Of a stretch of 64,000 bases of DNA, positions 32,919 to 50,121 are shown one piece after another; positions within the stretch are counted from its first letter, which is position 1, and each line of letters begins with the position of its first letter. The position numbers and the translations under genes are program-made. The notes beneath the pieces are model-generated. The model ran no database searches, was not told the DNA's origin, and saw only the letters and a list, made by a program, of their open reading frames with translations. The DNA comes from a virus (lineage: Duplodnaviria > Caudoviricetes): IMG/VR virus record IMGVR_UViG_2615840601_000001; one strand, given 5' to 3'.

Positions 32919-34561
32919 GCACGCCAAAGGTGCAAAAGCAGCTCAAATCAAGGGAGTTCCTCGACGGCCTCTCCGAGATGGCGGAAGCCTTCCGCCTGAA
33001 GATCGAGCTGGAAGTTGAAGCCTTCCCGATTGACCCCAAGCTGCGGGCCGAGCGGCTCAAAAAGGTGCAGGATCCGGAGACCGGTTATCGCTTCTTTGCC
33101 GAGACCTATTTCCCGCATTATCTGACCTCGGCCCCGTCGCTGCTGCATGAGCATCTCTATGACAATTTGCCCATGCTGGTCGCCACCAGGGAAGGGCAGA
33201 AGAAACTGGTCATCGCGCCACGCGGCTCGGCCAAATCCACCCATATCAGCCTGATCTTCCCGCTCTGGTGCATTGTGCGAGGCCTCAAGCATTATATCGT
33301 CCTGATCATGGATGCGTTTGAGCAGGCCGCTGTCATGCTCGAAGCCCTGAAAGCCGAGCTTGAGGTCAATCCTCGCCTCAAATATGACTTCCCCGATGTC
33401 TTCGGGCAGGGCCGTGTCTGGCGTGAGGGCGATATCATCACCCGCAACAATGTGAAGGTGGAGGGCTTCGGCACCGGCAAGAAGATCCGAGGCCGCCGCC
33501 ATGGCCCGTATCGCCCGGATCTGGCCATCCTAGATGATATCGAGAATGACGAGAATGTCGCCAGCCCCAAACAGCGCGACAAACTGGAAAGCTGGATCGC
33601 CAAGGCTGTCCTCAAGCTTGGCCCGACCGATGGCTCCATGGATGTGCTCTATGCGGGCACCGTGTTGCATTTTGATGCGGTGATTGTTCGTTATGCCAAG
33701 AAGCCGGGCTGGGGCGTCACCGAGTTCCGCGCCGTCCTTGAATGGCCTAACGATATGGCGCGGTGGGACGAGTGGGAAGAGATCTATCTCAATGAGGGGG
33801 AACCGGAGGCCGACGCCTTCTATTCGGCCAATAAGGCCGCGATGGACAAGGGTGCAGAGCTCAACTGGCCTGCCAATCATACGCTGATCTATCTGATGAA
33901 AGAGCGGGCCGGTGATCATGCCGCCTTTGAATCCGAGTATCAGAACAAGCCGCTTGCGCTCGACAATCCCTTTCAGAGCATCACCTGGTGGGTGCGGGTC
34001 AATCGGGACTGGCTGTTCTTCGGCGCTGTTGATCCGTCCCTTGGTAAGAACAATCGCAATCGCGACCCGTCTGCCATCCTTGTTGGAGCCTATGACAAAG
34101 AGAGCACCATTCTCGATATTGTCGAAGCCTCCATTCGCCGACGCGTGCCCGATCTCATCATTGATGACATTATTGCCATGCAACGGGAATACCACTGCCA
34201 GATGTGGTTTGCCGAGGTGGTCCAGTTCCAGGAGTTCCTGCGCACCGAACTGATGAAGCGGGCGGCAAAAGCCGGTCTTGCCCTGCCTGCCTATCCGGTC
34301 ACGCCGATCATTGACAAGAACTTGCGCATCGAGCGGCTGCAGATCCCGATCTCGGACGGCACCATCCGCCTTCACAAGAGCCAGCAGACCCTCATTGATC
34401 AGCTCCAGCAATGGCCCATGGCCGACCATGATGACGGGCCGGACTGCCTTGAGATGCTCTGGAAGCATGCCATCGAAATGGCCGCTACCACCCTGACCGC
34501 CACCTCTATCACCACCGCTGCCCCAATCAGTCAGGGCGCGTTAGGAGGCTATCGATTATGA
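32915..34561 (+). CDS. Terminase large subunit
   Basis: APRGSAKST, RPDLAILDDIE, AVDPS, HDDGPD. Confidence 0.93.
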   Translation: MSTPKVQKQLKSREFLDGLSEMAEAFRLKIELEVEAFPIDPKLRAERLKKVQDPETGYRFFAETYFPHYLTSAPSLLHEHLYDNLPMLVATREGQKKLVIAPRGSAKSTHISLIFPLWCIVRGLKHYIVLIMDAFEQAAVMLEALKAELEVNPRLKYDFPDVFGQGRVWREGDIITRNNVKVEGFGTGKKIRGRRHGPYRPDLAILDDIENDENVASPKQRDKLESWIAKAVLKLGPTDGSMDVLYAGTVLHFDAVIVRYAKKPGWGVTEFRAVLEWPNDMARWDEWEEIYLNEGEPEADAFYSANKAAMDKGAELNWPANHTLIYLMKERAGDHAAFESEYQNKPLALDNPFQSITWWVRVNRDWLFFGAVDPSLGKNNRNRDPSAILVGAYDKESTILDIVEASIRRRVPDLIIDDIIAMQREYHCQMWFAEVVQFQEFLRTELMKRAAKAGLALPAYPVTPIIDKNLRIERLQIPISDGTIRLHKSQQTLIDQLQQWPMADHDDGPDCLEMLWKHAIEMAATTLTATSITTAAPISQGALGGYRL

Positions 34562-36177
34562 GCCGCAAATCCCGCCGAAACCGTGCTCGCCGCCGTGCCG
34601 TCCAGCAAGTGGCGCAACAGACTTCACAACAGGCCACACAGGCAAAGTTGCCCAAACAGGGTGGCCAGCTGATCGCCACGGCGCAGAATGACATCACCGT
34701 CCCCTTTTATTCGGACATCCTTGTGCCGCAGGATACGACCATCAAGGAAAAGGGGCCACACAAGGGCCTCAAGCTCTATGACGAGGTCATGAAGGATGGT
34801 CGGGCCAAGGCCACACTTAGTAAGCGCTACAGCAAGATCACCCGGCGCGAATGGATGGTGGAGGCGGCAAGCGAGGATACAAAGGATATCGAGGCCAGGG
34901 ACGGCATGGAGGAGATCCTCAATGCCCTGCCGTTTGACGCCATTTGCAAGGAACTCTCCAAAGCCATTCTTAAGGGCTTTGCCATCTCGGAAATCGTCTG
35001 GGGCCGCAATGTGGACGGGCATGTGGTGCCGGAGAGGATCAAGACCCACGACCCAAGCCGCTTTGTCTTTGACAAGGACTGGAACCCGCGTCTTCTGGTG
35101 CCAGAGAATTCCATCGACGGGATCAAGCTGCCCGTTCGCAAGTTCATTGTCCATCGGTTCGATGCCGAAGGAAACAATCCTTACGGCATGGGGCTCGGCT
35201 CCGTCCTTTTCTGGCATGTGCTGTTCAAGCGCGAGGGCGTTTCCTTCTGGATGAAGTTCCTCGACAAGTTTGCCGCTCCCATTCCGTTCGGCAAATATGC
35301 GGTCGGCACCCCCAAGAAAGAACAGGACCAGTTGCTCAACTCACTGATGGCGATGGTTCAGCAGGGCGCGCTTGTTGCCCCCATTGGCACAGAGGTCAGC
35401 TTTCTGGAAGCAGCCCGCTCAGGCAATGCCTCCTATGAGGAATGGTGCCGGTTCTGGGATGAGCAGACCTCCGAGGTGGTTCTGGGCAGCACCCTGTCGA
35501 CCAGCCTCAAGGGGCAAGGGTCTCGCGCTGCGTCTCAAACCCATGCAGAAGAAACCGACAGCATTATCGATGATGATTGCGACCAGCTTTCCGATACGCT
35601 CAACCCGACCCTCATCAAATGGATCTCAGAGCAGAACTGGCCCGATGCCAACCCGCCGACCGTGTGGCGTCCGCGCCCTCGCAACGAAAGTGAAGAGGAA
35701 GACCAGAAGGCAAAACGGGCCACTCGACAGCAGTCAGAAATCCGCTCTCTTGATGCTGCCCGCAAACAGGGCTTTGAACCCAAGGATGTCCAGGACTGGC
35801 TCTCCTCTGTCTTCGACGTTGAAATGGTGCCGGTCGAGCTGACCACACCTCAACCGGCAGAGCCAGAGGACAACGCGACATTTGCTGATGATGACAGCCC
35901 GATTGCTCATCTGATTGATCAGTTGGAAGAGCTGGCGGGACCGCAGCAACAAGCATGGCTCGATCATATCCAGGAACGCCTGTCGAAAGTGTCCAGCTTC
36001 TCGGAGGCCTCTCAGGCCTTGCTGGAGCTGTCTGGCGAACTGGAGATCGATCCAATGGGCCGGGTGATGGGCAACGCCATCGCCCTTTCTGAGATCACGG
36101 GCCGATCCGATGTCTTTGACGAGACGGGCATCTATCCTTCCGGGGCGCGTGGCTCAAAAAAAAAGACCAAAATCTAG
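34558..36177 (+). CDS. Portal protein (Mu gp29, DUF935)
   Basis: GFAISEIVW, NPYG.GL, W..FLDKF..P; ends in A9 slippery run. Confidence 0.92.
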   Translation: MSRKSRRNRARRRAVQQVAQQTSQQATQAKLPKQGGQLIATAQNDITVPFYSDILVPQDTTIKEKGPHKGLKLYDEVMKDGRAKATLSKRYSKITRREWMVEAASEDTKDIEARDGMEEILNALPFDAICKELSKAILKGFAISEIVWGRNVDGHVVPERIKTHDPSRFVFDKDWNPRLLVPENSIDGIKLPVRKFIVHRFDAEGNNPYGMGLGSVLFWHVLFKREGVSFWMKFLDKFAAPIPFGKYAVGTPKKEQDQLLNSLMAMVQQGALVAPIGTEVSFLEAARSGNASYEEWCRFWDEQTSEVVLGSTLSTSLKGQGSRAASQTHAEETDSIIDDDCDQLSDTLNPTLIKWISEQNWPDANPPTVWRPRPRNESEEEDQKAKRATRQQSEIRSLDAARKQGFEPKDVQDWLSSVFDVEMVPVELTTPQPAEPEDNATFADDDSPIAHLIDQLEELAGPQQQAWLDHIQERLSKVSSFSEASQALLELSGELEIDPMGRVMGNAIALSEITGRSDVFDETGIYPSGARGSKKKTKI

Positions 36178-37445
36178 CTGCCTTTGCCGACATAGGGCCG
36201 TTTGAAGAGGCTCTGGACTTCCATCGCCAGAAGGTGCGTCTTCCGACCCGCGCCTGGTCCGATTTGCTCCATCATGGTCATGACCGGGCCTTTGTCGTGG
36301 CCGGGGCACAGAAGGATGCCATGCTGGAAGACTTCCAGATGGCCATTGATGACGCCATCGCAAAGGGCATGCCGCTCAAGGGATGGCTCGACAAGGATGA
36401 TACCTATCATCCCGGCTTTCTTGATCGCTTTGACGAGATCGTCAAAAAGCACGGCTGGGATTACAAGGGCGGACGCAACTGGCGTGCCCGCGTCATCTAT
36501 GAGACCAATCTCAAAACCGCCTATGCTGCCGGTCGCTACAAGCAGATGACCGATCCGGCCACGCTTAAGGCCTTTCCTTACTGGCAGTATAAGCATGCCT
36601 GGGAACGCATTCCGCTTCATCCGCGCGAAGAGCATGAAGCGTGGGATGGGCTGATCCTTCCGGCTGATGATCCATGGTGGCAGACCTATTACCCGCCCAA
36701 TGGCTGGAAATGCGGCTGTGGCGTGCGGCCAGTCAGTCGGGCAAAGCTCAAACGCGTTGGTAAGGAAGGCCCCGATACCGCCCCTTCCATCCAGTACCAA
36801 CAGAAACTGGATCCCGGCACAGGTGACCCAATCGACTATCCCGCTGGCGTCGATATGGGATGGGCCTATGCCCCAGGCCGGACATGGGCAGATGGACTGG
36901 TGCCAAGGGAACTGCAAAGATCAGCAGGCAGGCAAATGGAATTGCCGGAAATGAACAATCTGCCCGCCCTATCAGGTGGTTCCAAGCCTGTGATGGCTCC
37001 ACTTCTTCCTACTGGTCAAACACACGAATATTATGTGTCACAGTTCCTAGAGGCTTTTGATGCTGATCTTGATGAAGAAAAGAGCTTTCGGGACAAGGCG
37101 GGCAATATTGTTATTCTCAGCAGGAAACTATTCCAAAGGGCGGACGGTTCCAGCAAACTGAACAGCACCCGTGCTCCCGCCCTTAAGCAGCTCGCCGAAG
37201 CCATCATGGATCCAGATGAAATCTGGGTTGACTGGGAATGGCATGATGTGAGGAAGGAATGGATACTGAAGCGCCGTTATCTGCGCTCAGCTCCCAATCT
37301 TGCCGGGTTGCTTGTGTTCGAATGGTCCCAGCATGGCTGGTCAGCGACCACAGCCTACAATGCAGCACGTGGTCGCAAGCTCAAACCAAACCACAATCAA
37401 ATCAACAGCTGGCGACGGGGCCATTTGTTATGGCAGCGCAAATAA
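36156..37445 (+). CDS. Mu gpF head morphogenesis protein with C-terminal PBECR-like nuclease domain; probably entered by -1 frameshift from portal
   Basis: PFEEALDFHRQK lies upstream of first GTG (36234); IYETN..TAYAAGR, YPPNGWKCGC; LAEAIMDPDEIW. Confidence 0.8.
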   Translation, partial: KKKDQNLAAFADIGPFEEALDFHRQKVRLPTRAWSDLLHHGHDRAFVVAGAQKDAMLEDFQMAIDDAIAKGMPLKGWLDKDDTYHPGFLDRFDEIVKKHGWDYKGGRNWRARVIYETNLKTAYAAGRYKQMTDPATLKAFPYWQYKHAWERIPLHPREEHEAWDGLILPADDPWWQTYYPPNGWKCGCGVRPVSRAKLKRVGKEGPDTAPSIQYQQKLDPGTGDPIDYPAGVDMGWAYAPGRTWADGLVPRELQRSAGRQMELPEMNNLPALSGGSKPVMAPLLPTGQTHEYYVSQFLEAFDADLDEEKSFRDKAGNIVILSRKLFQRADGSSKLNSTRAPALKQLAEAIMDPDEIWVDWEWHDVRKEWILKRRYLRSAPNLAGLLVFEWSQHGWSATTAYNAARGRKLKPNHNQINSWRRGHLLWQRK

Positions 37446-37548
37446 AAATGGCAGCCGGTGCGAACTGCCATTTGCGCAATCGAGTGGAGACACGCACCTG
37501 TCCCCGATTGCATCAATGTAAATATAGCACCCCTGGAGGGCTTTTTAA

Positions 37549-38052
37549 ATGCCATTCCTCAGTTTCAGATATGACTATGCCTCCGCAGATCAGGAGATCC
37601 GCCGTCTGATCGACAAGATCGAAGACAAGGCCGCTATTCATCGTGTCATCGGCATGGCGCTCTATGATCAGACCATGGACCGGTTCGAGCGTGAAGAGAG
37701 CCCGGATGGCAACAAATGGGCACCGCTCGCCCCACTTACCCTCTCTAACCGCCGCCAGCCCAGGGGCATCTTGCGCGACAGCGGTGAGTTGATGCGCTCC
37801 ATCCATTTTGAAGCCTCATCCTCCCGCACGGAGGTCGGCACCAATCTCAACCATCCAAAGGTCTGGGTCATGCAGCGCGGCGCAACGATCAAGCCGCGCC
37901 GGTTCAACTCCCTGCGCATCCCTGTCTCACGCGGGGCTGAAGGCTATGTCTTCAGCAAGGGCGTGAAGATCCCCGCACGGCCTTATATCGGTATCGGACG
38001 GCAGGATGAAGAGGTGATCCGGGAGGAGCTGGAGGGGTATTTTGGGGACTGA
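37549..38052 (+). CDS. Virion morphogenesis protein gpG
   Basis: RF..E.SPDG.KWAPL, ILRDSGEL..SI, IPARPYIG. Confidence 0.88.
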   Translation: MPFLSFRYDYASADQEIRRLIDKIEDKAAIHRVIGMALYDQTMDRFEREESPDGNKWAPLAPLTLSNRRQPRGILRDSGELMRSIHFEASSSRTEVGTNLNHPKVWVMQRGATIKPRRFNSLRIPVSRGAEGYVFSKGVKIPARPYIGIGRQDEEVIREELEGYFGD

Positions 38053-38196
38053 TGATATGGTCGGAACGGCCCAGAGCCGCCGTTCGCCAAGACCCTCTCA
38101 CCAAAAGCCAGCGTCCCCAAAGCAGGCATACGTGGCTGTGCTCCGGTTCAGGCTTCTTCGAAAAGCCAGCAAGCAAGTCGAGGCGTTTCAATGTTC

Positions 38197-38715
38197 TTAA
38201 TAAGGCAGTTTTAAAACGAAATGAAAGAGATTCCAAAACTTGCTTTCACCCGAATAGACCCGTCCTTCGAACCATTCAGCCGCTTTATAAACGGCATTGA
38301 AGCCCGCTCGTTCGTAGATGATATTGGCTTCATCAAAGCTGATGCATTTTGCTATTGGACTCGCTGCCCAATCATCATCTAGGCCCAATAGGGTCACGTA
38401 AATGGTGCCGTTATCATTCAATAGGGATTTTAAGCGACCGAGGAACTCCTCGAGGGAATAGGTGATATGGTGAGAAACGAGAGATGCAACGATAAGATCG
38501 TAGCGCTGAGTTGTGGTAAAATCTTCAAATCTGCTTTGAATGAAATTGATCTCTTTGTCTGAAGCCAATTCTTCAAAAACCACAGGATCAATTGCATCAA
38601 CGTTATGGCCCTTATTTGCGAAATACCTCGCCATCCCTCCCTCTCTTGCACCAACATCTAGCACTCTACCTGGTTTAGGTAATTCAATTCTCTCTATAAT
38701 ATCGGCGCGTATCAT
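38197..38715 (-). CDS. Class I SAM-dependent methyltransferase (cargo)
   Basis: VLDVGAREG, VDAID, YDLIV; low GC. Confidence 0.8.
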   Translation of the reverse strand: MIRADIIERIELPKPGRVLDVGAREGGMARYFANKGHNVDAIDPVVFEELASDKEINFIQSRFEDFTTTQRYDLIVASLVSHHITYSLEEFLGRLKSLLNDNGTIYVTLLGLDDDWAASPIAKCISFDEANIIYERAGFNAVYKAAEWFEGRVYSGESKFWNLFHFVLKLPY

Positions 38716-39092
38716 ACAGGCATCTTTCTCGACTGTTTGTTATTTGCAAGGCTGTCTCTTGCGGTGTCTTGAAGAAACCATAGCCTGTACGAGGAAAACG
38801 TCTCGAGCCAGCGTTTAGTTTTGCTAACTCACAGCTGCAAACGGTCCTGCCACTTTTAGTGTCCAATTTGGGCTCGAACCGGACTGGTGCAGTGCATCAT
38901 CATGCGACAACGCTCATCCAGGTTGGTGATTTGCAATCGCGGCCCCTTAAGAGACACTCAGCGATAAGCTGTCATACTGCGGCGCTCCCCTCCCATCCGG
39001 TCATTTGCCGCAGATGTGCAATCTCAGGGGAGATGCATATTCACGATGCGGACTTTATGGAACTACAGCGCGGTCTGTGGCAAGATCTTGCA

Positions 39093-39815
39093 ATGATAGA
39101 ATTCCGCTCCCTTTCCGATGACCATCCCGACCTCGCGCATTCCCCGCTGCTGCACGGTGCGCTCCTTACACTGCAATATGCGCAGAAGCACGGATCAATC
39201 GCTCTGACCAAATCTAAGGCCTTCAAGCGCATTTTCGTCCATTGGGCCGTCGAGAATTTCAATTGGCCAGGCAAAAGCGCAGAAGAGATGTTCCGCTATA
39301 ACAAGGTAATCAATGAATATGAGTTTCCTCCGCTCGAGATTATCCATTTCCTGCTCATCTCCCTGCGCCTGGGACGTCACTTCAAGGGTGAGTTTCGACT
39401 GACCAAGCGGGGCATAAAACTGGCGCAATCTCCTGGCCATCTGTTTGCCGAGTTGATCCCATACTTTGTGCTTCAGATGGATCACTCTTCTTATGCACGC
39501 TTTGAAAACCGTCCCTTCGGGAAGTGGGAGGTCTGGATGAATGTGATTAACGTCGAAGCCGATCAAGGCACGACCGAGGCTGCCTTGTTCGAAATCTTCT
39601 ACGGTGAGCCGCAAGATTGGCACACTGCAGGGTGGAGAGAGATGGCTGTGTTTTCAGCCTGTGTACTTCGTCCGCTCGAATGGGCTGGGTTGCTGGTGGA
39701 GACACGTGAAGAAGGAGGCAGCAAGCCTGTATGTCATGTGTTCAAAACCCCACTCTGGCGCAGCGCGATCAACCTTGATACCGACAACATGCTGCGGCCA
39801 ATATCCGTTCAATGA
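39093..39815 (+). CDS. Hypothetical protein (cargo)
   Basis: Long ORF, likely ATG 39093; flanked by degenerate repeats. Confidence 0.65.
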   Translation: MIEFRSLSDDHPDLAHSPLLHGALLTLQYAQKHGSIALTKSKAFKRIFVHWAVENFNWPGKSAEEMFRYNKVINEYEFPPLEIIHFLLISLRLGRHFKGEFRLTKRGIKLAQSPGHLFAELIPYFVLQMDHSSYARFENRPFGKWEVWMNVINVEADQGTTEAALFEIFYGEPQDWHTAGWREMAVFSACVLRPLEWAGLLVETREEGGSKPVCHVFKTPLWRSAINLDTDNMLRPISVQ

Positions 39816-40062
39816 GAGATGCTTTTTCGGCTACCAAGATGTGGCGCTTTTAGCGTTTGCGGCCCCAAGCGGTCGAGTGCGATGCGTAATGATGAAAGCC
39901 GCTCATCTAGGCTTGCGTTTTGCATTCGCGGCCCAAAGCTGCCTTTCGTGCACCTCGCAATGAACGTCCGGTTTGTCAGCCGAAGCGGAAATGCTAACTT
40001 AGATGGGTGGCAAGCGTTCGCTCTATTGCCACCACTTTGTGACACTTTCGGATCGAAAAATG

Positions 40063-40186
40063 GATAGTTGGGCGTGCCTGTATGTGTGTGGTCCGCAAAA
40101 GCGTAAACTTAGAAGGAACGCAGAGGCCTAGTAATGGGTCCCGTCGCGTCCAGCTCAGATATCTCAGGCAACCGCCCACAATTATC
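40063..40186 (-). ncRNA. DRT3-associated ncRNA with CACACACA tract
   Basis: Starts right after drt3b stop; 5' GATAATTGTGGGCGGTTGCCTG pairs with 3' CAGGCACGCCCAACTATC; tract at 40083-40090. Confidence 0.8.
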
Positions 40187-42121
40187 TTAGACCGCCGAGT
40201 ATACAGGCTGCAACTGCTTTCTTCTCAAAAAATGAGACGTTCTTCCGGCGTTCCAATCGACGAATGCAACGTGTTTTGCGAGCTTTTCGATATCATCGTC
40301 CGATAGGTCATCGACGCCACAAACTTCCTTTATTAAGGCCTTTCTTTTGCTAACCTTAATATAGGGACATCCTATAATATCGCTAAACATCAGGTATACC
40401 TCTGAACTAGTCCTGAGTTCTGTTTTGTTTCTACGAACCTGTTTGAGAGCCAACTTGGAGATGGTTTCGAGCGCCCTATCAACATCAACAGACGGCGATG
40501 CTTGCGCCAACAGAAAAATCATCGCAATAAATGAAAAGTACCCAATGCTTTTCCTTTTAAGCAACATGGTGCACAGCTCAATAACAGGGGGCTGGGATAA
40601 AAACAGGTCACTATTAACCGAAGCACCAAGCACAAGCAGATTACAAATTTCTAAGGAAATGTCTTTCTCAATCTTTTCCGGTTTATAGGTAGCAACTAGC
40701 TCCGTTATCTCATAAACGAGATAGCTATCTAGCGCTTCAGCTTCTGACAATCCGATTGCAGTCTTGAAATTCTTTAAGCTCTCGAGAATTTGGAAAGATT
40801 TATAGATCGGAGCAACGCGAAAATCTGACGCCAAAGAATAGAATAGAATTCGCAGAATGGATCTAACTCTATTAATGGCGTCAATTTTTGTTTTAGTCGT
40901 AAAACTTTCTGCCGACTTTAATACAGCTTTAACGGCCTTCCCTATCTGAAAATAGATCGAGCCGGTTACTTCGTTGAAAGTTGCATCTGTATCACGAACA
41001 ACTAGCCTTAACTCTTCAAGTAGGCTTCGCATGTTGCGGCGTATCTCTGTTTGTTCGTCCTCGTCATCAACTAACGGCCTTTTTGCTTCGGCTAGCAACC
41101 TAGTGGTAATATCTCCGATGCCTTGTTTTGCTCGGGTGATGTTGGTCACAAAAGGGCGGCGCAAATTTTCAAGTTTTCCCTCGTTCGGATACAGCTTATA
41201 CTCTTCTAAACAAGTTTCTACAGCTCGATTCAGTTCGTCGAGTACAGCTTCATTCCGTGTAAAGAGGAAAAAGTCATCGACATATCTACGGAAAGTGTAA
41301 TCACGCCCCTCGCGAAGGTGTTTATCCATTTTTAAGATTATATTTCTATCAATCTTCTGAAAGATTATCTCCGCAAAGACTCGTGATATCTCGGGTCCAA
41401 CAACAATTCCATTTGTTTCATTGTAATTGGACCGTTGCATCAGTGCATCGAACCGGCCCTCGAAGGTATACTTGTTTGCTTGGGCTTTAGAATAAGGTTT
41501 ATCCTTCACAGCCCATGTCACTGAATGGGTATAGATGTTAAAAAAGCACTTAGTTACATCAAGCTTTCTGAGATACTGAAATCGGCTCTCTAGCCTTAGA
41601 AGTTCGTTAGAGCCATAAAACTTGTCGAGCAAATTGTATTTTTTGACTGAAAAAAAGGATGGAGCAAAATTAATATCTAAGCGTCCATCTTCCGGCGCTA
41701 CATGTGCTAGTCCAAGCTTCTTCGCATTCCCTGCTTTCTTCAATTCTTCCTTCGAAACTTCCGGCAAAACTCTGTACGGAGCTCGAAGCGAGTATCTACT
41801 TTCACTGCATTCCGAAATGATTGTATTCGAATATCCTACTAAAAAAGTTGCCATTCTGATCTGGTGAAGTGGATGAACAATACTGAGTGTATTGAAGCCT
41901 CTGGCTCCTTTGCGAATCTGGTAGCTGAAAGGAATTGTGTAAGTCTCTGGCCTCAAAGGCCTCCTGTAGTCCCCATTTAAAAACTCTTGTGCTTTAACAG
42001 AAAGCCGAGACTTTCTTAGCTCGGATACGAAGAGAAATTCGTTGGAAAAGGTGACAGGAACCTCGTATGGCAGTGTTTCAGTCAAGAGAGGTCGCAATTT
42101 CCGTGCGTGTGGTTCAAGCAT
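40187..42121 (-). CDS. drt3b: Antiphage reverse transcriptase Drt3b (UG8-type)
   Basis: LLTETLPYEVP..FSN, LDVTKCF.NIYTHS..WA, GIVVGPEISRVFAE, RYVDD; 644 aa. Confidence 0.9.
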   Translation of the reverse strand: MLEPHARKLRPLLTETLPYEVPVTFSNEFLFVSELRKSRLSVKAQEFLNGDYRRPLRPETYTIPFSYQIRKGARGFNTLSIVHPLHQIRMATFLVGYSNTIISECSESRYSLRAPYRVLPEVSKEELKKAGNAKKLGLAHVAPEDGRLDINFAPSFFSVKKYNLLDKFYGSNELLRLESRFQYLRKLDVTKCFFNIYTHSVTWAVKDKPYSKAQANKYTFEGRFDALMQRSNYNETNGIVVGPEISRVFAEIIFQKIDRNIILKMDKHLREGRDYTFRRYVDDFFLFTRNEAVLDELNRAVETCLEEYKLYPNEGKLENLRRPFVTNITRAKQGIGDITTRLLAEAKRPLVDDEDEQTEIRRNMRSLLEELRLVVRDTDATFNEVTGSIYFQIGKAVKAVLKSAESFTTKTKIDAINRVRSILRILFYSLASDFRVAPIYKSFQILESLKNFKTAIGLSEAEALDSYLVYEITELVATYKPEKIEKDISLEICNLLVLGASVNSDLFLSQPPVIELCTMLLKRKSIGYFSFIAMIFLLAQASPSVDVDRALETISKLALKQVRRNKTELRTSSEVYLMFSDIIGCPYIKVSKRKALIKEVCGVDDLSDDDIEKLAKHVAFVDWNAGRTSHFLRRKQLQPVYSAV

Positions 42122-43403
42122 TCAACCAAGCCTTTCTTATTTCGGAAACAGTGGCACGCTTGAAGCGCACGGTCATCTTGTTTGTGAACCCCTTGTAAAA
42201 AGAGAGGTTCTTTAACTCTGCCAACTGCTCTGGCGTGAACGAAGCTTGAATTTCCGTTTTGAACTGGCTGTTACCTCCCCATAAAAGGGATGATAAAAAC
42301 CCATCTAACTCTTTCAGTTCGATTGGAGCAACTGAGACATTCTCAGGACCTTGCCGTCTGTATTGATACAAGCCGCATTTCCGATAATTGAAGTATATTC
42401 CGGTCCTGATTCTGGCTTTTTTCGATCCGTGAGTATGACCCGTCTTTCTAATTTCAAAATTGCTGGTGAGAAACTTCACTCGGTTTAGCAGCAAAGCAGC
42501 GTTCTTGTCTTTTTGGAATGCTTTCAAGCTAAGTATGATACGTGTCTTTCTGACTTTGATTTTGTCTTTAGATATCTTGACCAAGACTTGTCGGCTCATT
42601 CGAGCTCGAATTCCATTTGAGCATTCGAACGAATAACCGAGATAGGTGAACGAGCTGGCTGGCTTTTTGCAAGGATTTTTGTCTGAATCTGGTATCGACT
42701 CTAGAAAAGCATCTTCCGTCTTTGAGTTCAGTTCGAAATTTGGGCTTAGGATCTCCTTGATTTTGGCAAGTGCTGGATCGACCTTTTGCGTTGAAAACAA
42801 CAAAATGTCATCTGCGAAGCGAAAATATCGGTAAACCCCTTCGATCTCCATGACTTCTCGATCAAATTTACGCAGCGCAAGTTCGGCGAAGGTGGTGCTG
42901 AGGCCAAGTCCACGAGGGATGCCAGATTGTGTTCCCCCAAGTAGGCCCGACGTTTCTAGAACTCTCAGGACTGTCTTTACGTGTGAGTGTGTCTTTGTTG
43001 AACTAAGAATCTCTGCCAGTATTGCCTTTGCATCTACATTTTCGAAGAAAGATTTTATATCACACCGCAATACATAAAATGGTGAAGCGTCGAACAGAGT
43101 TTCTAAGACGCCGTTAACCACAGTGTCGCGGCTAGCCGAGCTAACACCATATTGTTTGTTCAAAGACCTCGCGGTCGCTCGTAGAGCGAGCGCACCGTGA
43201 AAGTTGTTAATCAAAAGCAGCTTTCGCCCTTTGGAAATCGGGACCGAGCGGTGATGAAAAGTGATTGTGCCATCATCCACCTGTTCGCGTATCTGAGAAA
43301 GAAGAGCCTCGCAATCCAATGCCAAATCGACACCAAACTTCCTGGAGTCGCCGACCCGAATACAGCTTCTAAGATATTTTTCAGAAAATGGACTAATCTG
43401 CAT
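42114..43403 (-). CDS. drt3a: Antiphage reverse transcriptase Drt3a (UG3-type)
   Basis: RCDIKSFFE, GIPRGLGLS, YFRFADD, FTYLGYSF; overlaps drt3b start by 8 nt. Confidence 0.9.
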   Translation of the reverse strand: MQISPFSEKYLRSCIRVGDSRKFGVDLALDCEALLSQIREQVDDGTITFHHRSVPISKGRKLLLINNFHGALALRATARSLNKQYGVSSASRDTVVNGVLETLFDASPFYVLRCDIKSFFENVDAKAILAEILSSTKTHSHVKTVLRVLETSGLLGGTQSGIPRGLGLSTTFAELALRKFDREVMEIEGVYRYFRFADDILLFSTQKVDPALAKIKEILSPNFELNSKTEDAFLESIPDSDKNPCKKPASSFTYLGYSFECSNGIRARMSRQVLVKISKDKIKVRKTRIILSLKAFQKDKNAALLLNRVKFLTSNFEIRKTGHTHGSKKARIRTGIYFNYRKCGLYQYRRQGPENVSVAPIELKELDGFLSSLLWGGNSQFKTEIQASFTPEQLAELKNLSFYKGFTNKMTVRFKRATVSEIRKAWLNA

Positions 43404-43889
43404 TATTGTTTACTTCTTATCAAAAGGTTGTAAATATTTCCGATACAATTTGATCCGCATGCAAGTTAGTTGAGCGATGTAAGCATAACAATACCAGAAA
43501 TTGCACAAAAACAGCAATGTGACTAAAACTGTCTTCGGTGCAGATAGCAGCAAAAGACTGCCTCCCGCCCGACCATGACGCAGCTATCAAAGCGAGCTTA
43601 AAGTTCCCGAGAATGTCCGCTTCTGCTGGCTACCATCAGGATTTTGCATCTGCGGGAAATGTCCGCAATCCGCCCACAGGCGTCGATCATCAAGCTTTCC
43701 GACAATTTGTCTCTGTCGCGTTTTGTACCCCCTCCCAGCCCCCACCATACCCAAAATTTCCGCGAGCCGCGTTAAAGGCGCGTTAGAAAGCCATTGAGGG
43801 CCTATTGTTGCGGTTGGGTTGCCTCTCATCTGCCGTTGGTGATAGAAGGGCGATAGCTTCCCCCCAAAAATTGACTTCATATGCCGCCC

Positions 43890-43930
43890 GGAACAGTTCC
43901 GGCGAGCGCCATCATTTTACCTGCCATGTT
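43890..43930 (+). promoter_or_regulatory. Putative late promoter (GGAACAGTTCC + CATGTT)
   Basis: Recurrent motif, 24-nt spacer, upstream of protease. Confidence 0.6.
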
Positions 43931-43960
43931 GCCATCAACTTGATCCCAAGGAGATGCGGC

Positions 43961-45127
43961 GTGGCCAAGGTTGATGACAAAGACAAAACGAAGCGCATTG
44001 AGGTGTTCCGTCCGGGCACGTTTACGGCGATGGGCGGCATGGCGTTCAGTGCGTCTGCTGAAGACCTGGCTGGTCTGGCTCAGCGTTATGATCCTGACGC
44101 ATATCCTGTGCCTGTTGTTGTTGGCCATCCCAAGACTGACGATCCCGCCTATGGCTGGGTGAAGGCCTTTTCCTATGATGATGAGGCGGATCGCCTCTTT
44201 GCCGAGATCGGTGATCTGGAGCCACAGTTCGCCGATGCGGTTGCGCAGCATCGCTACAAGCGCGTCTCCATGGCTTTTTATAAACCAGGTGCAAGCTCCA
44301 ATCCTGCGGGCGATGCTCTCTATCCCAAACATGTCGGGTTTCTTGGGGCTGTGGCTCCTGCTGTGCCCGGTTTGAAGCCGGTGGAATTTGCCGGTGAGGC
44401 GGATGATGTCATCGCCGTCGAGTTTGCCGATGCCGCCTTCAAGGATGTTGCCAGCATCTTTCGCCGTTTCCGTGACTGGCTGATCGCCAACGAAGGTCTG
44501 GAGACCGCAGACAATGTGCTGCCCGACTATCAGATCCGCTGGATCGACGATGCTGGCGACCTGCCTCCCGACATTCCTTCCCCCGAATTTTCTGAAGACG
44601 AGGAACCCACCATGGCCCTGAAGCCCGCCAAATCCAAACCCGCCCAGACCGCCACTACACAACCAAGCGAAGCTGAGCTTACCTTTGCTGAGCGAGAGGC
44701 CGAGCTGAACGCCCGTCAGGCAGAGCTGGACGAGCGGGAAGCCGAACAGCGCCATGAGACCCATGTCGCCTTTGCCGAAGGCCTTGTCGATGATGGCCGC
44801 CTGCCATCGGGCAACCGGGCCAAGGTGGTGGCCCTGCTCGATGGCGCTTCTGAGCTTGATGCGGACGAGATCGAATTTGCCGATGGCAACGAGACCAAGA
44901 AAGCCGATCTGGTCGATCTCTTGAAAGACGTGCTCAAGACCCAGCCTCCCATCATCCAGTTTGGCGAGATGGATCTGGGTGATGCACCGGACGGCAAGGA
45001 GCCTGATCCCGAGGTCATCGCCAATGAGGCGGTTGCCTTCCAGGTCTCCCAGCGTGAAGCGGGGATTGAGGTCTCCACGTCCGACGCCATTTCCCACATC
45101 CGCCAGAAGCGTGGCCTGACAGACTAA
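43961..45127 (+). CDS. Prohead protease/scaffold (Mu gpI/Z-like)
   Basis: GTG with RBS AAGGAG; IEVFRPG, GHP, PAYGWV, HVGFLGA..PAV.GL. Confidence 0.9.
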   Translation: MAKVDDKDKTKRIEVFRPGTFTAMGGMAFSASAEDLAGLAQRYDPDAYPVPVVVGHPKTDDPAYGWVKAFSYDDEADRLFAEIGDLEPQFADAVAQHRYKRVSMAFYKPGASSNPAGDALYPKHVGFLGAVAPAVPGLKPVEFAGEADDVIAVEFADAAFKDVASIFRRFRDWLIANEGLETADNVLPDYQIRWIDDAGDLPPDIPSPEFSEDEEPTMALKPAKSKPAQTATTQPSEAELTFAEREAELNARQAELDEREAEQRHETHVAFAEGLVDDGRLPSGNRAKVVALLDGASELDADEIEFADGNETKKADLVDLLKDVLKTQPPIIQFGEMDLGDAPDGKEPDPEVIANEAVAFQVSQREAGIEVSTSDAISHIRQKRGLTD

Positions 45128-45163
45128 GCCGCACCCATTCCCCCTAATCTGGAGACGAGAACA

Positions 45164-45541
45164 ATGCAGCAGCATGTAGGGCTGATCAAGAATTTCATGG
45201 CAGAGGGGCTTATTGAGAAGCGCCGTCTGGTCACCTTCGGGTCTGAAGAAGGCAATGTTGCCAGGGCTGGCATCGGCGATGTGCTGCTTGGCACGACCGC
45301 GATCCGTGGTGCCCCTGCCGCCAATAGCCGAGTGGATGTCTGTCTCGACAATATCCGCGAAGTCGAATTTGGCGGTGTTGTCGCCTATGGCGATCCGATC
45401 ACCTCTGATGCCAATGGCCGCGCCATCAAGGCGGAACCGGCAGAAGGCAGTTCGGTTCCGATCATCGGACGCGCCATGGAAGGTGCCAAGGTTGGCACCA
45501 TCGGGCATGTCTTCATTCAGCCTGCCATCCTTCACGGCTAA
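45164..45541 (+). CDS. Capsid decoration/cement protein (DUF2190-like)
   Basis: GDPITSDANGRA; between protease and capsid. Confidence 0.75.
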   Translation: MQQHVGLIKNFMAEGLIEKRRLVTFGSEEGNVARAGIGDVLLGTTAIRGAPAANSRVDVCLDNIREVEFGGVVAYGDPITSDANGRAIKAEPAEGSSVPIIGRAMEGAKVGTIGHVFIQPAILHG

Positions 45542-45580
45542 GGCCGTTCATCCTTAACCCCTACTTGGAGAGGTCTCGCT

Positions 45581-46519
45581 ATGTCGACCGCTACCGACCA
45601 ATTTACCGAAAGCCCGACACTTACTGCGGTCGCTATTGCCTACCGCAATCCCGATTACGCACTGATTGCCGATGATGTTCTGCCGCGCGTTGACGTGCCT
45701 GGCATCAATTTCAAATGGCAGAGCTACAACGAAGCGGAAGCCTTCACCATTCCCGACACCAAGGTCGGTCGCCGTTCTGCACCGAACCAGGTTGAACTGG
45801 AAGGCGAAGAGAAGGATGGTTCGGTCGAGGACTTCGGGATCGACATCCCTCTCGACAATGCCACCATCACGGAAGCCAAGCGTAACAAGTATAATCCGGA
45901 AAGCCGGGCAACCGAGCGGGCAACCAACATTATCATGCTGGATCGTGAAGTGCGTGTTGCGAGACTGATCACCGATCCTGCCAATTATCATTCCGATCAT
46001 GTTGAGGCTCTGTCCGGCACGGACCTGCTGACGGATGAAGCGTCCGATCCGATCTCTCTGGTCGAGGATCTGATGTCCACCTGTTGGCACAAGCCCAACC
46101 AGATCACCTTTGGCTTTCGTGCCTGGCGTGCCTTCCGCAAGCATCCAAAGGTTATGAAAGCCGTTCATGGCAATAGCGGTGATGAAGGCCGCGCCACCCG
46201 TGCCCAGATTACTGAGCTGCTCGAAGTCAAGCGGATCCTCGTTGGCGAAAGCCGGGTCAACATCAACAAACCGGGTGAGAATGCTGAACTGCATCGCGTC
46301 TGGGACAACACCATTTCCGGTCAGTTCATTGATCGCACCGCCGACACGTCCGGTGGTTTGACCTTCGGCTTCACGGCCCAGCTCGGCAAGAAGATTGCCG
46401 GAACCCTTCCTGCCAATATGGGTTTGCGCGGTGGCAAACTGGTTCGCTCCGGTGAAAGCGTCAAAGAGTTCATCGTTGCCAATCGTGCAGGCTTCCTGAT
46501 CCAAAACGCAGTCGTCTGA
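45581..46519 (+). CDS. Major capsid protein
   Basis: PTLTAVAIAYRN...LIADDVLPRV; LDREVRVA; GFLIQNAV. Confidence 0.88.
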   Translation: MSTATDQFTESPTLTAVAIAYRNPDYALIADDVLPRVDVPGINFKWQSYNEAEAFTIPDTKVGRRSAPNQVELEGEEKDGSVEDFGIDIPLDNATITEAKRNKYNPESRATERATNIIMLDREVRVARLITDPANYHSDHVEALSGTDLLTDEASDPISLVEDLMSTCWHKPNQITFGFRAWRAFRKHPKVMKAVHGNSGDEGRATRAQITELLEVKRILVGESRVNINKPGENAELHRVWDNTISGQFIDRTADTSGGLTFGFTAQLGKKIAGTLPANMGLRGGKLVRSGESVKEFIVANRAGFLIQNAVV

Positions 46520-46592
46520 TCGCCAGGACGCGGTGAGCGGCCTGGATAACTGACCCACCGCTCATTTCCCTCTCATTTGAAAGCCTCAAACC

Positions 46593-46988
46593 ATGACTGA
46601 CAAGAAGACTTACCCCGTTCTTTCTGCCGTCCGCCACAATGGCACGCTCTACAAACCCGACGATCCGGAGCATGACAGCATCACGCTCACCGAGAAGGAA
46701 GCCAACCAGCTCCTGAAGCTCAAGGTGATCGGTGAACCGGCCCATGAGGATACTGATGAAGCGACTGGCTCCGAGCCATCCCTCTCTGATGAGGAGCGCA
46801 AACGGGTCATCATCAATGTTCTCCCGCAGCTCAAATCTGACACGGATCTCACCAAGGCCGGGGAGCCGAAGGTGAGCGTGATCGAAAAACTGGTCGGCTT
46901 TGATGTCTCTGCCGATGAGGTCAAGGCGATCTGGGCGGACGTCCAGGCGCAGTCTGCTGCCCTCAAAGTTGATCCTCAGAGCGAATAG
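46593..46988 (+). CDS. Head-associated hypothetical protein
   Basis: VRHNG..Y.P motif; DLTKAGEPKV domain. Confidence 0.6.
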   Translation: MTDKKTYPVLSAVRHNGTLYKPDDPEHDSITLTEKEANQLLKLKVIGEPAHEDTDEATGSEPSLSDEERKRVIINVLPQLKSDTDLTKAGEPKVSVIEKLVGFDVSADEVKAIWADVQAQSAALKVDPQSE

Positions 46989-47000
46989 GCGCGTTAGGTC

Positions 47001-47483
47001 ATGGCTGAGACGGGATCCTATCTAACGCTCGATGAGCTGATTGCCCGGCAGGACGAGAAGGACTTGCTTGCTCTTTGCGGGACAGGTGGCTGGAACGGTG
47101 CTGCCGGTCGGCAGATTGATGAGGCCCGTCTTGGCTGGCAGCTCAAACGTGCCCAGAGCATGATCGCGGGATATGTCAAATCCCGCTATCCGGCCCTTGA
47201 GGCCATGGTACCCGAGGACATGCCCGAAGCCCTCAAGGGCGCAGCCGAGACCCTTGTCATCTATTGGCTGCGGGATCGGGTCCATGACACGTCCGGTGTC
47301 TCCGATGAATGGAGGGACCGATATCGGGATGTGGTGAGCTGGCTCAAGGATATCCATGCGGGCCGCGCCGATCTCGATCTGCCCGGACTTGATGACGCAT
47401 CCGCTGAGGATGGGTCCGGGATCCTCAGTGCCTTCCCGGTGGGACGGGCTGACCATGTTTTGAAAGGATATGGCTTTGACTGA
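47001..47483 (+). CDS. Mu gp36-like (DUF1320)
   Basis: YLT.DEL..R, I.GY...RY, RY...VSWLKDI..G. Confidence 0.85.
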   Translation: MAETGSYLTLDELIARQDEKDLLALCGTGGWNGAAGRQIDEARLGWQLKRAQSMIAGYVKSRYPALEAMVPEDMPEALKGAAETLVIYWLRDRVHDTSGVSDEWRDRYRDVVSWLKDIHAGRADLDLPGLDDASAEDGSGILSAFPVGRADHVLKGYGFD

Positions 47484-47973
47484 TCTCATCATCAAAACAG
47501 ACCAGCTGAGCAATCTGGAAGCTGGCCTTGTTGAGCGGCTGAAGACCTTTCTGCCGTCGCCCTATTACATCGCACCATTCCCCGATAAGCCTGAAGACTT
47601 CGATATGGCGCGGATGGAGGCGGTTTGCCTCGTCCACTATTCCGGTTCCCGCTACAGCAAGCCGTCTGACCAGATCCGGCAGGTGCGCGAGATGCAGTTC
47701 ACGCTGGCGCTTTATATCTATGCGTTGCGTGGTGGAGCCGAAGACGAGCGGCTTCATGCCTATGGCGCTATCGAGACGATCCGCAAGGCGGCGCAGAATG
47801 TGCGGCTTGATGGCTGCAAGCCCTTTTACCTGGTCTCCGATCAATTGGTCGGTCAGCAGGCCGGGCGCTGGGACTGGCAAATCGACATCGCCTGCGAGAC
47901 CACCGCTGTTGCCGCCGAGCACAATATCCCAAGTCCTCGTTATCCCCTCAATCGCGCAAGACAGGAGGTCTGA
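47470..47973 (+). CDS. Gp37-like tail completion protein
   Basis: FPDKPE, LVHYSGSRY; synteny. Confidence 0.8.
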   Translation: MALTDLIIKTDQLSNLEAGLVERLKTFLPSPYYIAPFPDKPEDFDMARMEAVCLVHYSGSRYSKPSDQIRQVREMQFTLALYIYALRGGAEDERLHAYGAIETIRKAAQNVRLDGCKPFYLVSDQLVGQQAGRWDWQIDIACETTAVAAEHNIPSPRYPLNRARQEV

Positions 47974-47975
47974 CC

Positions 47976-48200
47976 ATGGCCGATATCGCGCCAGTCTTTA
48001 ACGACTATGTCTATTCCGGGCCGGTCCAGTCGATCTGCCTTAAAACCAAGAATGCCGATGGCGAGCTTGTCACTTTCCTTGATGACATCCTCAATCCGGG
48101 GTGCACCTACAGCCTTCTGGAAGGGCATCGGGTTGTCGAGGGCTGGAAGGCCATGAAGCTTGTCACGCGTGCAGCACAGGAAGGAGCTGACCATGAGTGA
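47976..48200 (+). CDS. Small hypothetical protein
   Basis: RBS AGGAGG; Y.YSGP motif before sheath. Confidence 0.6.
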   Translation: MADIAPVFNDYVYSGPVQSICLKTKNADGELVTFLDDILNPGCTYSLLEGHRVVEGWKAMKLVTRAAQEGADHE

Positions 48201-49509
48201 GCGTAAGTATGGCGCAGAGATCGTCACTGTCGATGATGGCGGAACCACCGTCACCGAACTGAAGGCCGCAACGGCGTTGCTTGTCGGGACGGCACCTATT
48301 CAAGAAGTTCATGTCACACCCGAGGCTCGGGCAGCCTATATCAACAAAAAGATCCTCATTCGGCGTCGTTCAGATATCGAAAGCTATTTCGGTCCGGTTC
48401 GCGATTGCTATACGATCCCCACGGCGCTGCATCAGATGTTCGATCAGGAAGGCACACAAGGGATCGGCACCATTTGCGTGGTCAATGTCTTTGACCCTGA
48501 TACTCATGTGGACGGAGAGAGCAATCCCGATCCGAGCCAGGTCACCAACCTTGATATCATCGGCGCGTTCGATGCCTCAGGTGCCCCGTCCGGGCTGCAA
48601 CATGCCTATGCCTGTTATCAGTCTTTCGGCTGGTTCCCCAAATTGCTACTTACGCCAGGCTTCTCCACCCAGACCGGGGTGCGAGCCGCGATGGAAAGCA
48701 TCGCCAACAAGGTGCGTGCCCGCTTCTTCCTTGACGCACCGCTCGGTGTCACCTCTCAGCAGGTGATTGAAGCCCGTGGCGATACAGGGGAGTTTGACTG
48801 GCAGATCAGCTCGCGGCGTGCCGTTGGCTGCTGGCCCTATATGAAGTTCGTCAATCTTGACAGCACGTCCCTGACGGCAGGCGAAGCGGTGCCACTCTGG
48901 TATAGCCCGGTGCTGGCGGCCATCTGGCTGCGCTATATCGTTGAGGTCGGCTATCACCATAGCCCTTCCAACCGGTCCATCATCTGCGAAGAGCCGGCAC
49001 AGGAAGTGCTCTATATTCCTGGCGACTTCACATCCGATGTGCAGGAGCTGCGGGCCAATGGGGTGGTGACGTGCGAAGAGCGCCACGGCAAGGGGCCGCA
49101 CACAGCGGGCAACCGGTCGCTCGCCTGGCCGACCGATACCAATATGCGCAACTTCCTGCATGTGCAGTTGATCGAGGATGTCATGCACGAGGCCGTGCTG
49201 CATTTCCTGGACCAATGGAAAGACCGCAATGGCAGCCCAGCCAATCTTGAGCTGATCGAAGACCGCATCAATGCCTACGGGATTGGCAAGACCACGGGCA
49301 AGGATCCGGCTCTGTCCGGCTTCCGCTTTGCCTTTGATCGCCAGAAGACCACCACAGCCACCGTAGCCGAGGGCCACTATTACTGGACGCTCGAATGGGC
49401 ACCCGTCGGCGTCATGGAATGGCTGACGGTCAATGACTGGATCAACACCGACATGCTCGGGGATCCGCTCGGTCTTTCTACCTCTGACACATCGTCCGCT
49501 GTAGCCTGA
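48193..49509 (+). CDS. Tail sheath protein
   Basis: LVGTAPI, YTIPTAL, VVNVFDP, PKLLLTPGFS, SPSN. Confidence 0.9.
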   Translation: MSERKYGAEIVTVDDGGTTVTELKAATALLVGTAPIQEVHVTPEARAAYINKKILIRRRSDIESYFGPVRDCYTIPTALHQMFDQEGTQGIGTICVVNVFDPDTHVDGESNPDPSQVTNLDIIGAFDASGAPSGLQHAYACYQSFGWFPKLLLTPGFSTQTGVRAAMESIANKVRARFFLDAPLGVTSQQVIEARGDTGEFDWQISSRRAVGCWPYMKFVNLDSTSLTAGEAVPLWYSPVLAAIWLRYIVEVGYHHSPSNRSIICEEPAQEVLYIPGDFTSDVQELRANGVVTCEERHGKGPHTAGNRSLAWPTDTNMRNFLHVQLIEDVMHEAVLHFLDQWKDRNGSPANLELIEDRINAYGIGKTTGKDPALSGFRFAFDRQKTTTATVAEGHYYWTLEWAPVGVMEWLTVNDWINTDMLGDPLGLSTSDTSSAVA

Positions 49510-49524
49510 TAAGGGAGAACAACA

Positions 49525-50040
49525 ATGGCAGATTATCGTCGTTACGGCCAATCGGTTCAGTCCGAGGTCTATCTGGAAGACAACAGCCTTGTTGGCATCG
49601 CCAAGGGTTTCCAGCTTCCGGCCATCAAATGGAAAACCGTGACCATCGAAACCCTCGGCCAGGTGGCGGTCTATGAACCGCCGTCCCGTGTTCTGGAAGC
49701 CCTCAATGGTTCGCTGACCATGAGCTTCTTTGAGCCGGAGCTGATGGGGGATTTCTTCAACCCGACCAAGTCGCAGAAACTGCAATTCCATCAATATGTC
49801 GATGTCAGCAATGAAGACGGCTATGACGCGGAACGCTCCTTCACCCGGATTTCCATCCTGACCATGCGCTTCACGGGCTATGAGCATCAGGAAGTCAGCC
49901 TTGGCGAGAATGAAGAGGTCCCGCTCGACTTTTCCTGCTCGCGTCTCGTCCAGCGCATTCATGACAGCGACAAGACCTTGCTTGAGATTGATGTCTTCGG
50001 CAACAAGGCAGGGAACAGTTCCGGCGCTTTCTGGAGCTGA
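49525..50040 (+). CDS. Tail tube protein
   Basis: Follows sheath; LEIDVFGN; 171 aa. Confidence 0.85.
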   Translation: MADYRRYGQSVQSEVYLEDNSLVGIAKGFQLPAIKWKTVTIETLGQVAVYEPPSRVLEALNGSLTMSFFEPELMGDFFNPTKSQKLQFHQYVDVSNEDGYDAERSFTRISILTMRFTGYEHQEVSLGENEEVPLDFSCSRLVQRIHDSDKTLLEIDVFGNKAGNSSGAFWS

Positions 50041-50063
50041 TTGGCCCACATTGATGGTAAGCG

Positions 50064-50095: not shown

Positions 50096-50121
50096 CATGC
50101 ACCCATTCCGAGGAGCTTACC

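Follow-up and report, generated by a model that had tools for sequence, protein, structure and literature searches.

What does the low-GC insert in the Mu-type prophage of IMG/VR record IMGVR_UViG_2615840601_000001 encode, and how would it be controlled in its host? We analysed the whole 64,000-nucleotide stretch of this record (the window). A preliminary description, made from the letters alone, had noted two overlapping minus-strand reverse transcriptase (RT) genes of 429 and 644 amino acids with FADD and YVDD motifs, and had read them as a complete defence-associated reverse transcriptase system of type 3 (DRT3) inside a Mu-like prophage. Both open reading frames (ORFs), with those sizes and motifs, are present in the ORF list, and at the sequence level the observation holds and the DRT3 identification is right. 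We consider it very probable that the locus is a genuine, apparently intact DRT type 3 system, comprising drt3a, drt3b and a downstream non-coding RNA (ncRNA), which was acquired horizontally as low-GC cargo in a slot of the prophage. The core features are:

42114..43403, minus strand: drt3a (UG3, class 2 RT), 429 amino acids, FADD at residues 196-199 (YFRFADDILLF); NF041747, PADLOC, PDB 9z6y_A.
40187..42121, minus strand: drt3b (UG8, class 1 RT), 644 amino acids, YVDD at residues 280-283 (FRRYVDDFFLF); NF041748, PADLOC, PDB 26cz_A/9z6y_H.
About 40063-40190, minus strand: putative DRT3 ncRNA of about 125 nt, ends approximate, placed from the template position, the closing stem and comparison.

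Identity of the paired reverse transcriptases

Both proteins were compared with the curated NCBIfam equivalog models, which carry their own cut-offs. Drt3a scored 355.9 bits against NF041747 (cut-off 200) and Drt3b 572.5 bits against NF041748 (cut-off 350), covering the two profiles from end to end (1-412 of 412 and 1-647 of 647). PADLOC agreed (4.4e-97 for Drt3a and 2.5e-160 for Drt3b, the next families being many orders of magnitude weaker). The top solved-structure matches for both RTs were DRT3 chains: 9z6y_A, named 'Drt3a reverse transcriptase protein', for Drt3a (2.5e-28, residues 6-426), and 26cz_A (1.8e-81) and 9z6y_H (6.6e-78) for Drt3b. Profile classification, which the preliminary description had proposed as a check, placed retrons, group II introns and the other DRT classes below their cut-offs (retron_St85 34.2 against 235; group_II_RT_mat 66.4 against 300; Drt2, Drt4 and Drt5 all far under).

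A search of 5.8 billion proteins returned 1094 Drt3b relatives at E ≤ 1e-20, many of them named 'antiviral reverse transcriptase Drt3b', the nearest (78-84% identical) coming from marine metagenomes and a Rhodobacterales isolate. In 105 of 109 related loci Drt3a and Drt3b share a strand, with Drt3a directly upstream; the four exceptions are truncated by contig ends. The two ORFs of the window overlap by 8 nt (ATGCTTGA). Motif C of Drt3a reads [FY][VSA]DD in all 101 related loci compared, three of which have FADD.

The E. coli DRT3 system reportedly has its source in the defence screen of Gao et al. 2020. Its mechanism was described by Wang et al. 2026 (PMC13174585) and by Deng et al. 2026 (through PMC13434031). 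In E. coli Drt3b, E22 and R241 are the nucleotide gates, R71 has a stacking role, D182 and YVDD are catalytic and Y666 is the priming tyrosine (PMC13174585). We took residue equivalences from a HMMER alignment to 26cz_A, a tagged chain with an offset of 108 residues. E22, R241, R71, D182, YVDD and Y666 correspond to E20, R247, N77, D188, Y280-D283 and Y641 in the window, the last aligning to the penultimate tyrosine of 26cz_A. D188, F193, R247, YVDD and Y641 do not vary among the 33 aligned homologues, and the gate position E20 is glutamate in 32 and aspartate in one. The catalytic motifs of both enzymes are intact (FADD 196-199 in Drt3a; D188 and YVDD 280-283 in Drt3b). By analogy with the published system, Drt3a would be an RNA-templated polymerase making poly(dT-dG), and Drt3b a protein-primed, protein-templated poly(dC-dA) polymerase.

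The window resembles E. coli DRT3 in the order Drt3a, Drt3b, ncRNA, in an ACACAC near the 3' end of an RNA of about 130 nt, and in a Drt3b with YVDD, a Glu gate, an Arg gate and a C-terminal priming tyrosine. It differs in that the alignment of Drt3b to the solved chain splits into an RT stretch (10-342) and a much weaker C-terminal one, in a distant Drt3a match with FADD as motif C, in an asparagine at the R71 equivalent, in a host with AddAB and without RecC, and in a Mu-type prophage as carrier.

The putative RNA downstream of drt3b

The elements of the putative RNA, all on the minus strand, are:

40165-40177: 5' strand of the closing stem (P1).
40161-40164: AGAU.
40094-40103: small hairpin.
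40084-40089: template ACACAC, 97 nt past the drt3b stop.
40070-40080: 3' strand of P1, with outer pairs extending to 40063.
40056-40060: U-run by the ncRNA.

The E. coli ncRNA also lies downstream of drt3b and contains a conserved 5'-ACACAC-3' loop template (PMC13174585); it is 130 nt long with the template at 108-113 (Deng et al. 2026, summarised in PMC13434031). In the window, 3 nt separate the ACACAC from the 3' strand of the long closing stem that follows it, and the motif is unpaired in the minimum free energy (MFE) fold. Since about 17 nt follow the template in both RNAs, the layout in the window fits that of E. coli. The outer end of the stem coincides with 40063, which the preliminary description had given as the left boundary of the locus.

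Genomes and viral contigs supplied 84 related loci. In the window, and in 72 of the 82 loci with a stop found, ACACAC occurs no more than 300 nt past drt3b; an arithmetic estimate of chance gives about 7% per sequence, and some loci are near-duplicates. When the 60 nt after the stop were tested for pairing with the 30 nt after the template, 57 of the 70 sequences scored z < -2, and the true P1 duplex outscored a displaced control in 64 of 68. In a register test on 20 loci, AGAU anchored the 5' strand and ACACAC+3 the 3' side, independently of each other. The six junction pairs were 70% paired at +3 against 30-44% at other offsets; all six form in the window, and at least four distinct helix sequences occur among the loci.

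Closer to the window, RNAalifold on its own clade (the window, L001, L087 and L088) recovered 12 closing-stem pairs, four of them changed on both sides. Here 93.8% of cells are paired against 27-46% in slid registers, and covariation is 0.528 against at most 0.167 in slid registers, a value reached by one of 500 shuffles. Covariation and the register controls thus support the closing stem, as judged from aligned sequences. A beta-proteobacterial subfamily has the same layout as the window, its consensus comprising an 18-bp closing stem, three hairpins and a single-stranded CACACACAUG, with compensatory changes in 23 of 44 pairs. The covariance model built from five beta-proteobacterial ncRNAs picked up four more loci at E ≤ 3e-5, besides three weak ones. 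An alignment of 14 mixed ncRNAs (MAFFT and RNAalifold) yielded no structure, as their interiors vary too much to be aligned. Rfam at permissive thresholds contained no matching ncRNA family, retron or intron RNA, the single hit being a chance match to Histone3 (E = 0.14).

The AGAU that follows the 5' strand of the closing stem is conserved in L001, L006, L008, L013, L016-L018, L020, L022, L027 and L041 as well. It is found in 29 of 73 ACACAC-bearing sequences, mostly proteobacterial, and may be a protein-contact or processing motif.

The carrier prophage and its G/protease slot

The prophage, its slot and the cargo within it are laid out as follows:

20541..62424, plus strand: Mu-type myovirus prophage, minimum extent, from homology to the prophage of genome G010 and Mu-type genes.
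37549..38052, plus strand: Mu G-like virion morphogenesis gene, left border of the slot (Pfam Phage_tail_S 2.2e-24; 61-93% identical in sister prophages and L129).
43805..45127, plus strand: head maturation protease/scaffold gene (Mu I-like), right border of the slot (PHROG 976 2.6e-103, match from residue 40).
38087..43697: cargo segment of 5.6 kb, GC 0.459, holding a methyltransferase gene, a Y4jL-family gene and DRT3 as three unrelated modules.
43404..43697, minus strand: non-coding leader upstream of drt3a, presumed promoter region.
38197..38715, minus strand: class I S-adenosylmethionine-dependent methyltransferase, 172 amino acids (Pfam Methyltransf_23 2.2e-15).
39057..39815, plus strand: Y4jL-family protein, 252 amino acids (PF27146/PF27262; atlas name Y4jL_N/y4jL_C), convergent with DRT3.

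The DRT3 module is antisense to the phage late genes and, as had been observed in the preliminary description, AT-richer than its surroundings. GC is 0.40-0.47 over 40000-43500 against 0.56-0.60 in the flanks, and 0.437 over 40063-43697 against 0.559 in the remaining prophage. MuA, a MuB-like protein, the Mu portal, F, G and the protease in the flanks bear out a Mu-like carrier. Homology to the G010 prophage spans 20538-62424 of the window, at 83-94% identity over most of 21582-62424 and 74% over 20538-21163, with a few segments replaced, and the largest break runs from 38086 to 43698. One break point of the cargo lies 34 nt past the stop of G and the other about 110 nt ahead of the protease ORF, so the remainder roughly equals the length of a usual empty gap. 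The protease is 97% identical to that of G010; homologues align from residues 27-59, and its true start is probably about 100-150 nt inside the ORF. The leader was bounded by the drt3a start and by the point at which homology to the G010 prophage resumes, 43698. A terminator scan was at or below chance.

Of the 21 other host-family genomes, 7 carry related prophages. In six sister prophages the interval from G to the protease holds 1.1-5.9 kb of differing cargo, low in GC in five of the six and including DRT3 in none. The contents are a KAP NTPase with a PifA-like N-terminus, an OLD/AriA-like ATPase, a RelA/SpoT-like protein with an NA37 partner, an insertion sequence transposase with a transglutaminase-like protein, a Na/Ca exchanger and an unknown protein. 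None of the cargo genes of the window occurs in the six sister prophages or in L129.

We extended the comparison to 80 more distant Mu-like viral contigs, 70 of which have both slot genes in order. The gap between these genes is 9-300 nt in 53 contigs, 358-455 nt in two and 0.7-4.7 kb in 15, and the cargo is lower in GC than its own contig in 14 of the 15. The ten largest cargo proteins divide evenly between strong matches to known systems and proteins with no match to any defence family. The matches are SIR2 (2.3e-80) with HerA (4.5e-163), a UG9 RT (3.3e-237) with RTasPolA (2.5e-171), and Rosmer RmrA (4.4e-178). The UG9 RT and RTasPolA pair lies in the G/protease slot at L189:2119-5383, and SIR2 with HerA at L174:5059-8039. 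The G/protease junction is therefore a hotspot for exchanged cargo, and its uncharacterised contents are candidates to mine for new systems. In phage Mu the lys operon meets the C-dependent promoter of gene I at this junction, which would explain why insertions are tolerated there.

A search of the literature found no description of the G/protease junction as a defence hotspot. The anti-CRISPR locus of Pseudomonas Mu-like phages occupies the same slot, and its content likewise varies between similar phages (Pawluk et al. 2014, PMC3993853). Its cargo consists of small counter-defence genes, whereas the window and its relatives hold defence systems several kilobases long, which often run antisense to the late genes. 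Shewanella phage MuM16-1 (PMC8541194) is closer to the window in having an RT-based putative defence element within its structural gene cluster, between morphogenesis genes and the protease, missing from close relatives. That element differs in being type VI retron-like, a single RT with a helix-turn-helix partner, and in its siphovirus carrier, and in the sections available its authors did not present the slot as a general hotspot. The P2 and P4 hotspots also hold interchangeable defence systems at fixed positions in temperate phages and satellites, but in another phage family and another slot, and Mu-type phages transpose and do not integrate site-specifically (Rousset et al., bioRxiv 10.1101/2021.01.21.427644).

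We considered the methyltransferase and the Y4jL-family gene as accessories of DRT3 and rejected them, as both are missing from all 109 other DRT3 loci. DRT3 is thus a self-contained unit of two genes and an RNA. Homologues of the Y4jL-family gene number 588 and come from many genera of marine alphaproteobacteria; the 74-92% identity of the best 120 of these 588, over such breadth, points to frequent horizontal transfer.

DRT3 occurs on four further IMG/VR contigs. Two are lambdoid (L083 and L084), with DRT3 between a Q-like antiterminator and endolysin/terminase (lysis) genes, and two are P4-like (L081 and L082), where an integrase and a Psu-like gene flank DRT3. No full-length Drt3b was found among 50,697 deposited phage genomes. 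Since DRT3 rides on phages elsewhere, its carriage by a Mu-type phage adds one more case to a recurring pattern.

The rest of the prophage is apparently that of a complete Mu-type myovirus, judging by its gene content. The early part encodes a MuA-type transposase (22842-25076; Mu-transpos_C 1.6e-15, HTH_Tnp_Mu_1, rve), a MuB-like ATPase (25106-25873; AAA_22/TniB), a CI-like repressor, a Ner-like helix-turn-helix protein, GemA, DUF3164 and a Mor/C-like activator. Lysis and head genes follow (muramidase, TerL, Mu portal, Mu F, the G-like morphogenesis protein, head protease and major head protein), and then tail genes (sheath, tape measure, baseplate and fibres). Further features in and beside the prophage are:

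36234-37445, plus strand: Mu F-like head protein with a C-terminal PBECR2 (Barnase-EndoU-ColicinE5/D-RelE-like) nuclease domain (7e-32), which may be a virion-delivered nuclease or toxin domain.
61545-62423, plus strand: D12-class N6-adenine DNA methyltransferase (4.4e-27), the last prophage gene, in the place that the modification gene mom occupies in Mu.
18321-20188, plus strand: type II restriction-modification pair adjoining the left end of the prophage (C5 cytosine methylase 2.3e-60; Eco29kI-family endonuclease 3.3e-60).

The left end of the prophage may lie at 20189-20400 and the right end at 62424-62655, with the right host flank resuming at about 62655. Inverted-repeat searches for the termini gave nothing above chance, and the motif GGCAAAACCGCG matched 16 times where 8.2 matches were expected, never at the right end. 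Neither aligning the G010 prophage end to end nor searching for an empty site fixed the ends or a target duplication, the latter approach failing because the left flank is not conserved in the sister genomes.

Three side observations concern the prophages and their surroundings. The protease/scaffold gene of the G012 sister prophage (L132; G012:C1:595034-596350) has an in-frame TGA, and this prophage may be defective. DNA at 5408-8513 of the window is 72-83% identical to the tail-fibre end of the G010 Mu-like prophage, which suggests a second phage-derived element upstream. An early-region segment of about 780 bp (28331-29111) is missing from the otherwise about 91% identical G010 prophage, which is contiguous there, and ORFs within it matched no family. 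We rejected ORF 28339-29124 as a real gene; it has no family match, and its translation, by eye, is unlike a real protein.

Proposed control in an AddAB host and competing explanations

In E. coli, RecBCD holds the duplex product of DRT3 down, and lambda Gam, which inhibits RecBCD, sets the system off; T1 ST61 acts as a further trigger and GreA is required, neither of which RecBCD explains (PMC13174585). The host of the prophage has alpha-type AddA (1327 bits) and AddB (1040 bits), both above cut-off, and a search for RecC gave no match in the host, with E. coli positive in the same search as a control. The five other DRT3-bearing alphaproteobacterial genomes tested all likewise have AddAB, with RecC not found. 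AddAB corresponds in function to RecBCD. Should the guard model carry over, AddAB would have to be the guard, because RecC is absent.

We propose a mechanism with its steps taken from the 2026 work on E. coli DRT3. If the module is expressed in the lysogen, Drt3a would bind the ncRNA and repeatedly copy the single-stranded ACACAC into poly(dT-dG), the template being confined by the small hairpin on its immediate upstream side and by the closing stem 3 nt past its downstream end. Drt3b, using no nucleic-acid template, would prime on Tyr641 and add alternating dA and dC under the direction of Glu20 and Arg247, and the two products would anneal into poly(GT/AC) duplex DNA. In the uninfected lysogen a double-strand exonuclease, here presumably AddAB, would keep this duplex low. 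An infecting phage that blocks the nuclease or perturbs transcription would allow it to accumulate, and the cell would arrest, aborting the infection and protecting the lysogen population together with the prophage.

Several observations weigh against reading the locus as an intact system that works as in E. coli. The R71-equivalent column holds N in 25, T in 6 and H in 2 of the 33 homologues, and never R. On this alignment the change to N77 is a clade-level difference and no defect specific to the window copy, and in E. coli R71A and R71K merely reduce synthesis (PMC13174585). A public gene call gives Drt3b as 589 residues, about 55 shorter at the N-terminus, and if correct would remove the Glu20 gate; the 644-residue start is supported because homologues at 78-84% identity have 642-644 residues with conserved N-termini. 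The preliminary description had also called the region after drt3b structured. The fold of the window ncRNA alone (MFE -65.8 kcal/mol, z = -1.16, 27 of 200 shuffles as good) does not bear this out, and so the term rests on the comparative evidence for the stem. The P1 duplex of the window (-23.0 kcal/mol, z = -1.8) is similarly weak as a lone sequence, and the five-sequence beta-proteobacterial covariance model did not match the window. A consensus promoter scan of the locus gave four sites against 7.3 expected, none above chance. Finally, the published RecBCD guard cannot apply literally in this host, and the control logic proposed here is extrapolated.

The most probable alternative, though one that we regard as unlikely, is an active system that differs from E. 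coli DRT3 in its control and perhaps in the handling of its product. The guard might not be AddAB, the trigger might be an ST61-like transcription-perturbing protein or another cue, and Asn77 may alter the kinetics or fidelity of Drt3b. The nuclease complement of the host and of the five other carriers tested is consistent with this, as are the N, T or H at the R71 position throughout the clade and the T1 ST61 trigger and GreA requirement that lie outside RecBCD (PMC13174585). However, the unchanged ACACAC argues that a complementary poly(CA) product is still needed, and the specificity-setting E20 and R247 are kept. The general equivalence of AddAB and RecBCD would speak for an unaltered guard.

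It is improbable that DRT3 is a silent or decaying passenger, with intact genes that are not expressed or not functional in this host owing to foreign GC, an unmatched promoter, the lack of a RecBCD guard or antisense read-through from the late operon. The promoter scan would agree with such a state, the GC of 0.44 against 0.56 marks a recent foreign origin, and within the host family DRT3 is found in one of 21 other genomes only, as a partial match of 34% identity. Against this, both ORFs are full length by the curated profiles, all catalytic, gate and priming residues and the 8-nt coupling overlap are kept, the ncRNA retains its template and closing stem and shows compensatory changes relative to its nearest relatives, and an AddAB-only host, seen in five of five other carriers tested, is normal for the clade. 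There is scarcely any likelihood that the pair is instead a retron, a group II intron, a DRT10/UG17 with an AbiK-like RT or two neighbouring single-gene DRTs, since the matches of the 429-residue RT to RT_UG17 (4.4e-26) and of the 644-residue RT to Drt6 (1.5e-39) and Drt4 (1.9e-32) are tens of orders weaker than those to DRT3 and all under the NCBIfam cut-offs, and the conserved Drt3a-Drt3b adjacency, the DRT3-specific ACACAC template and the lack of a retron or intron RNA in Rfam all oppose it.

Returning to the reading of the locus as an intact DRT3 system, the system may be active, it may spread by replicative transposition and its carrier may have to avoid triggering it during its own lytic cycle, as the preliminary description had inferred. 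The idea of self-triggering is made concrete by the E. coli system, because there the trigger lambda Gam is an inhibitor of RecBCD. Mu Gam was not found in the prophage by Pfam and PHROG scans of the early ORFs, and a search with the Mu Gam family was blank in the host, five sister genomes and five related proviruses, a weak negative as it was run without a positive control. The absence of Gam is weakly established, lineage-wide and not specific to the DRT3 carrier. We rejected the loss of Gam as an adaptation to DRT3 carriage, since the DRT3-free sister prophages are equally blank.

We tentatively advance a broader proposal, to which we give a little less than an even chance. The G/protease junction would be a lineage-wide exchange slot through which Mu-type phages trade whole defence systems, the nuclease guard of DRT3 would be generic and not specific to RecBCD, and a Gam-less Mu-type phage would be a naturally compatible carrier.

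DRT3 is among the most unusual polymerase systems known, in that one strand of its product is specified by protein side chains, and mechanistic work so far has addressed only E. coli copies, which are restrained by RecBCD. The window adds a hotspot between G and the protease at a known anti-CRISPR position, a host setting with AddAB only and a clade-wide difference of R71 to N. Its DRT3 is a natural test of how general the nuclease guard and the gates are, in an alphaproteobacterial clade without RecBCD and with asparagine in place of R71. As the carrier is a transposable phage whose lytic replication makes many DNA ends, self-triggering of the system would be directly testable.

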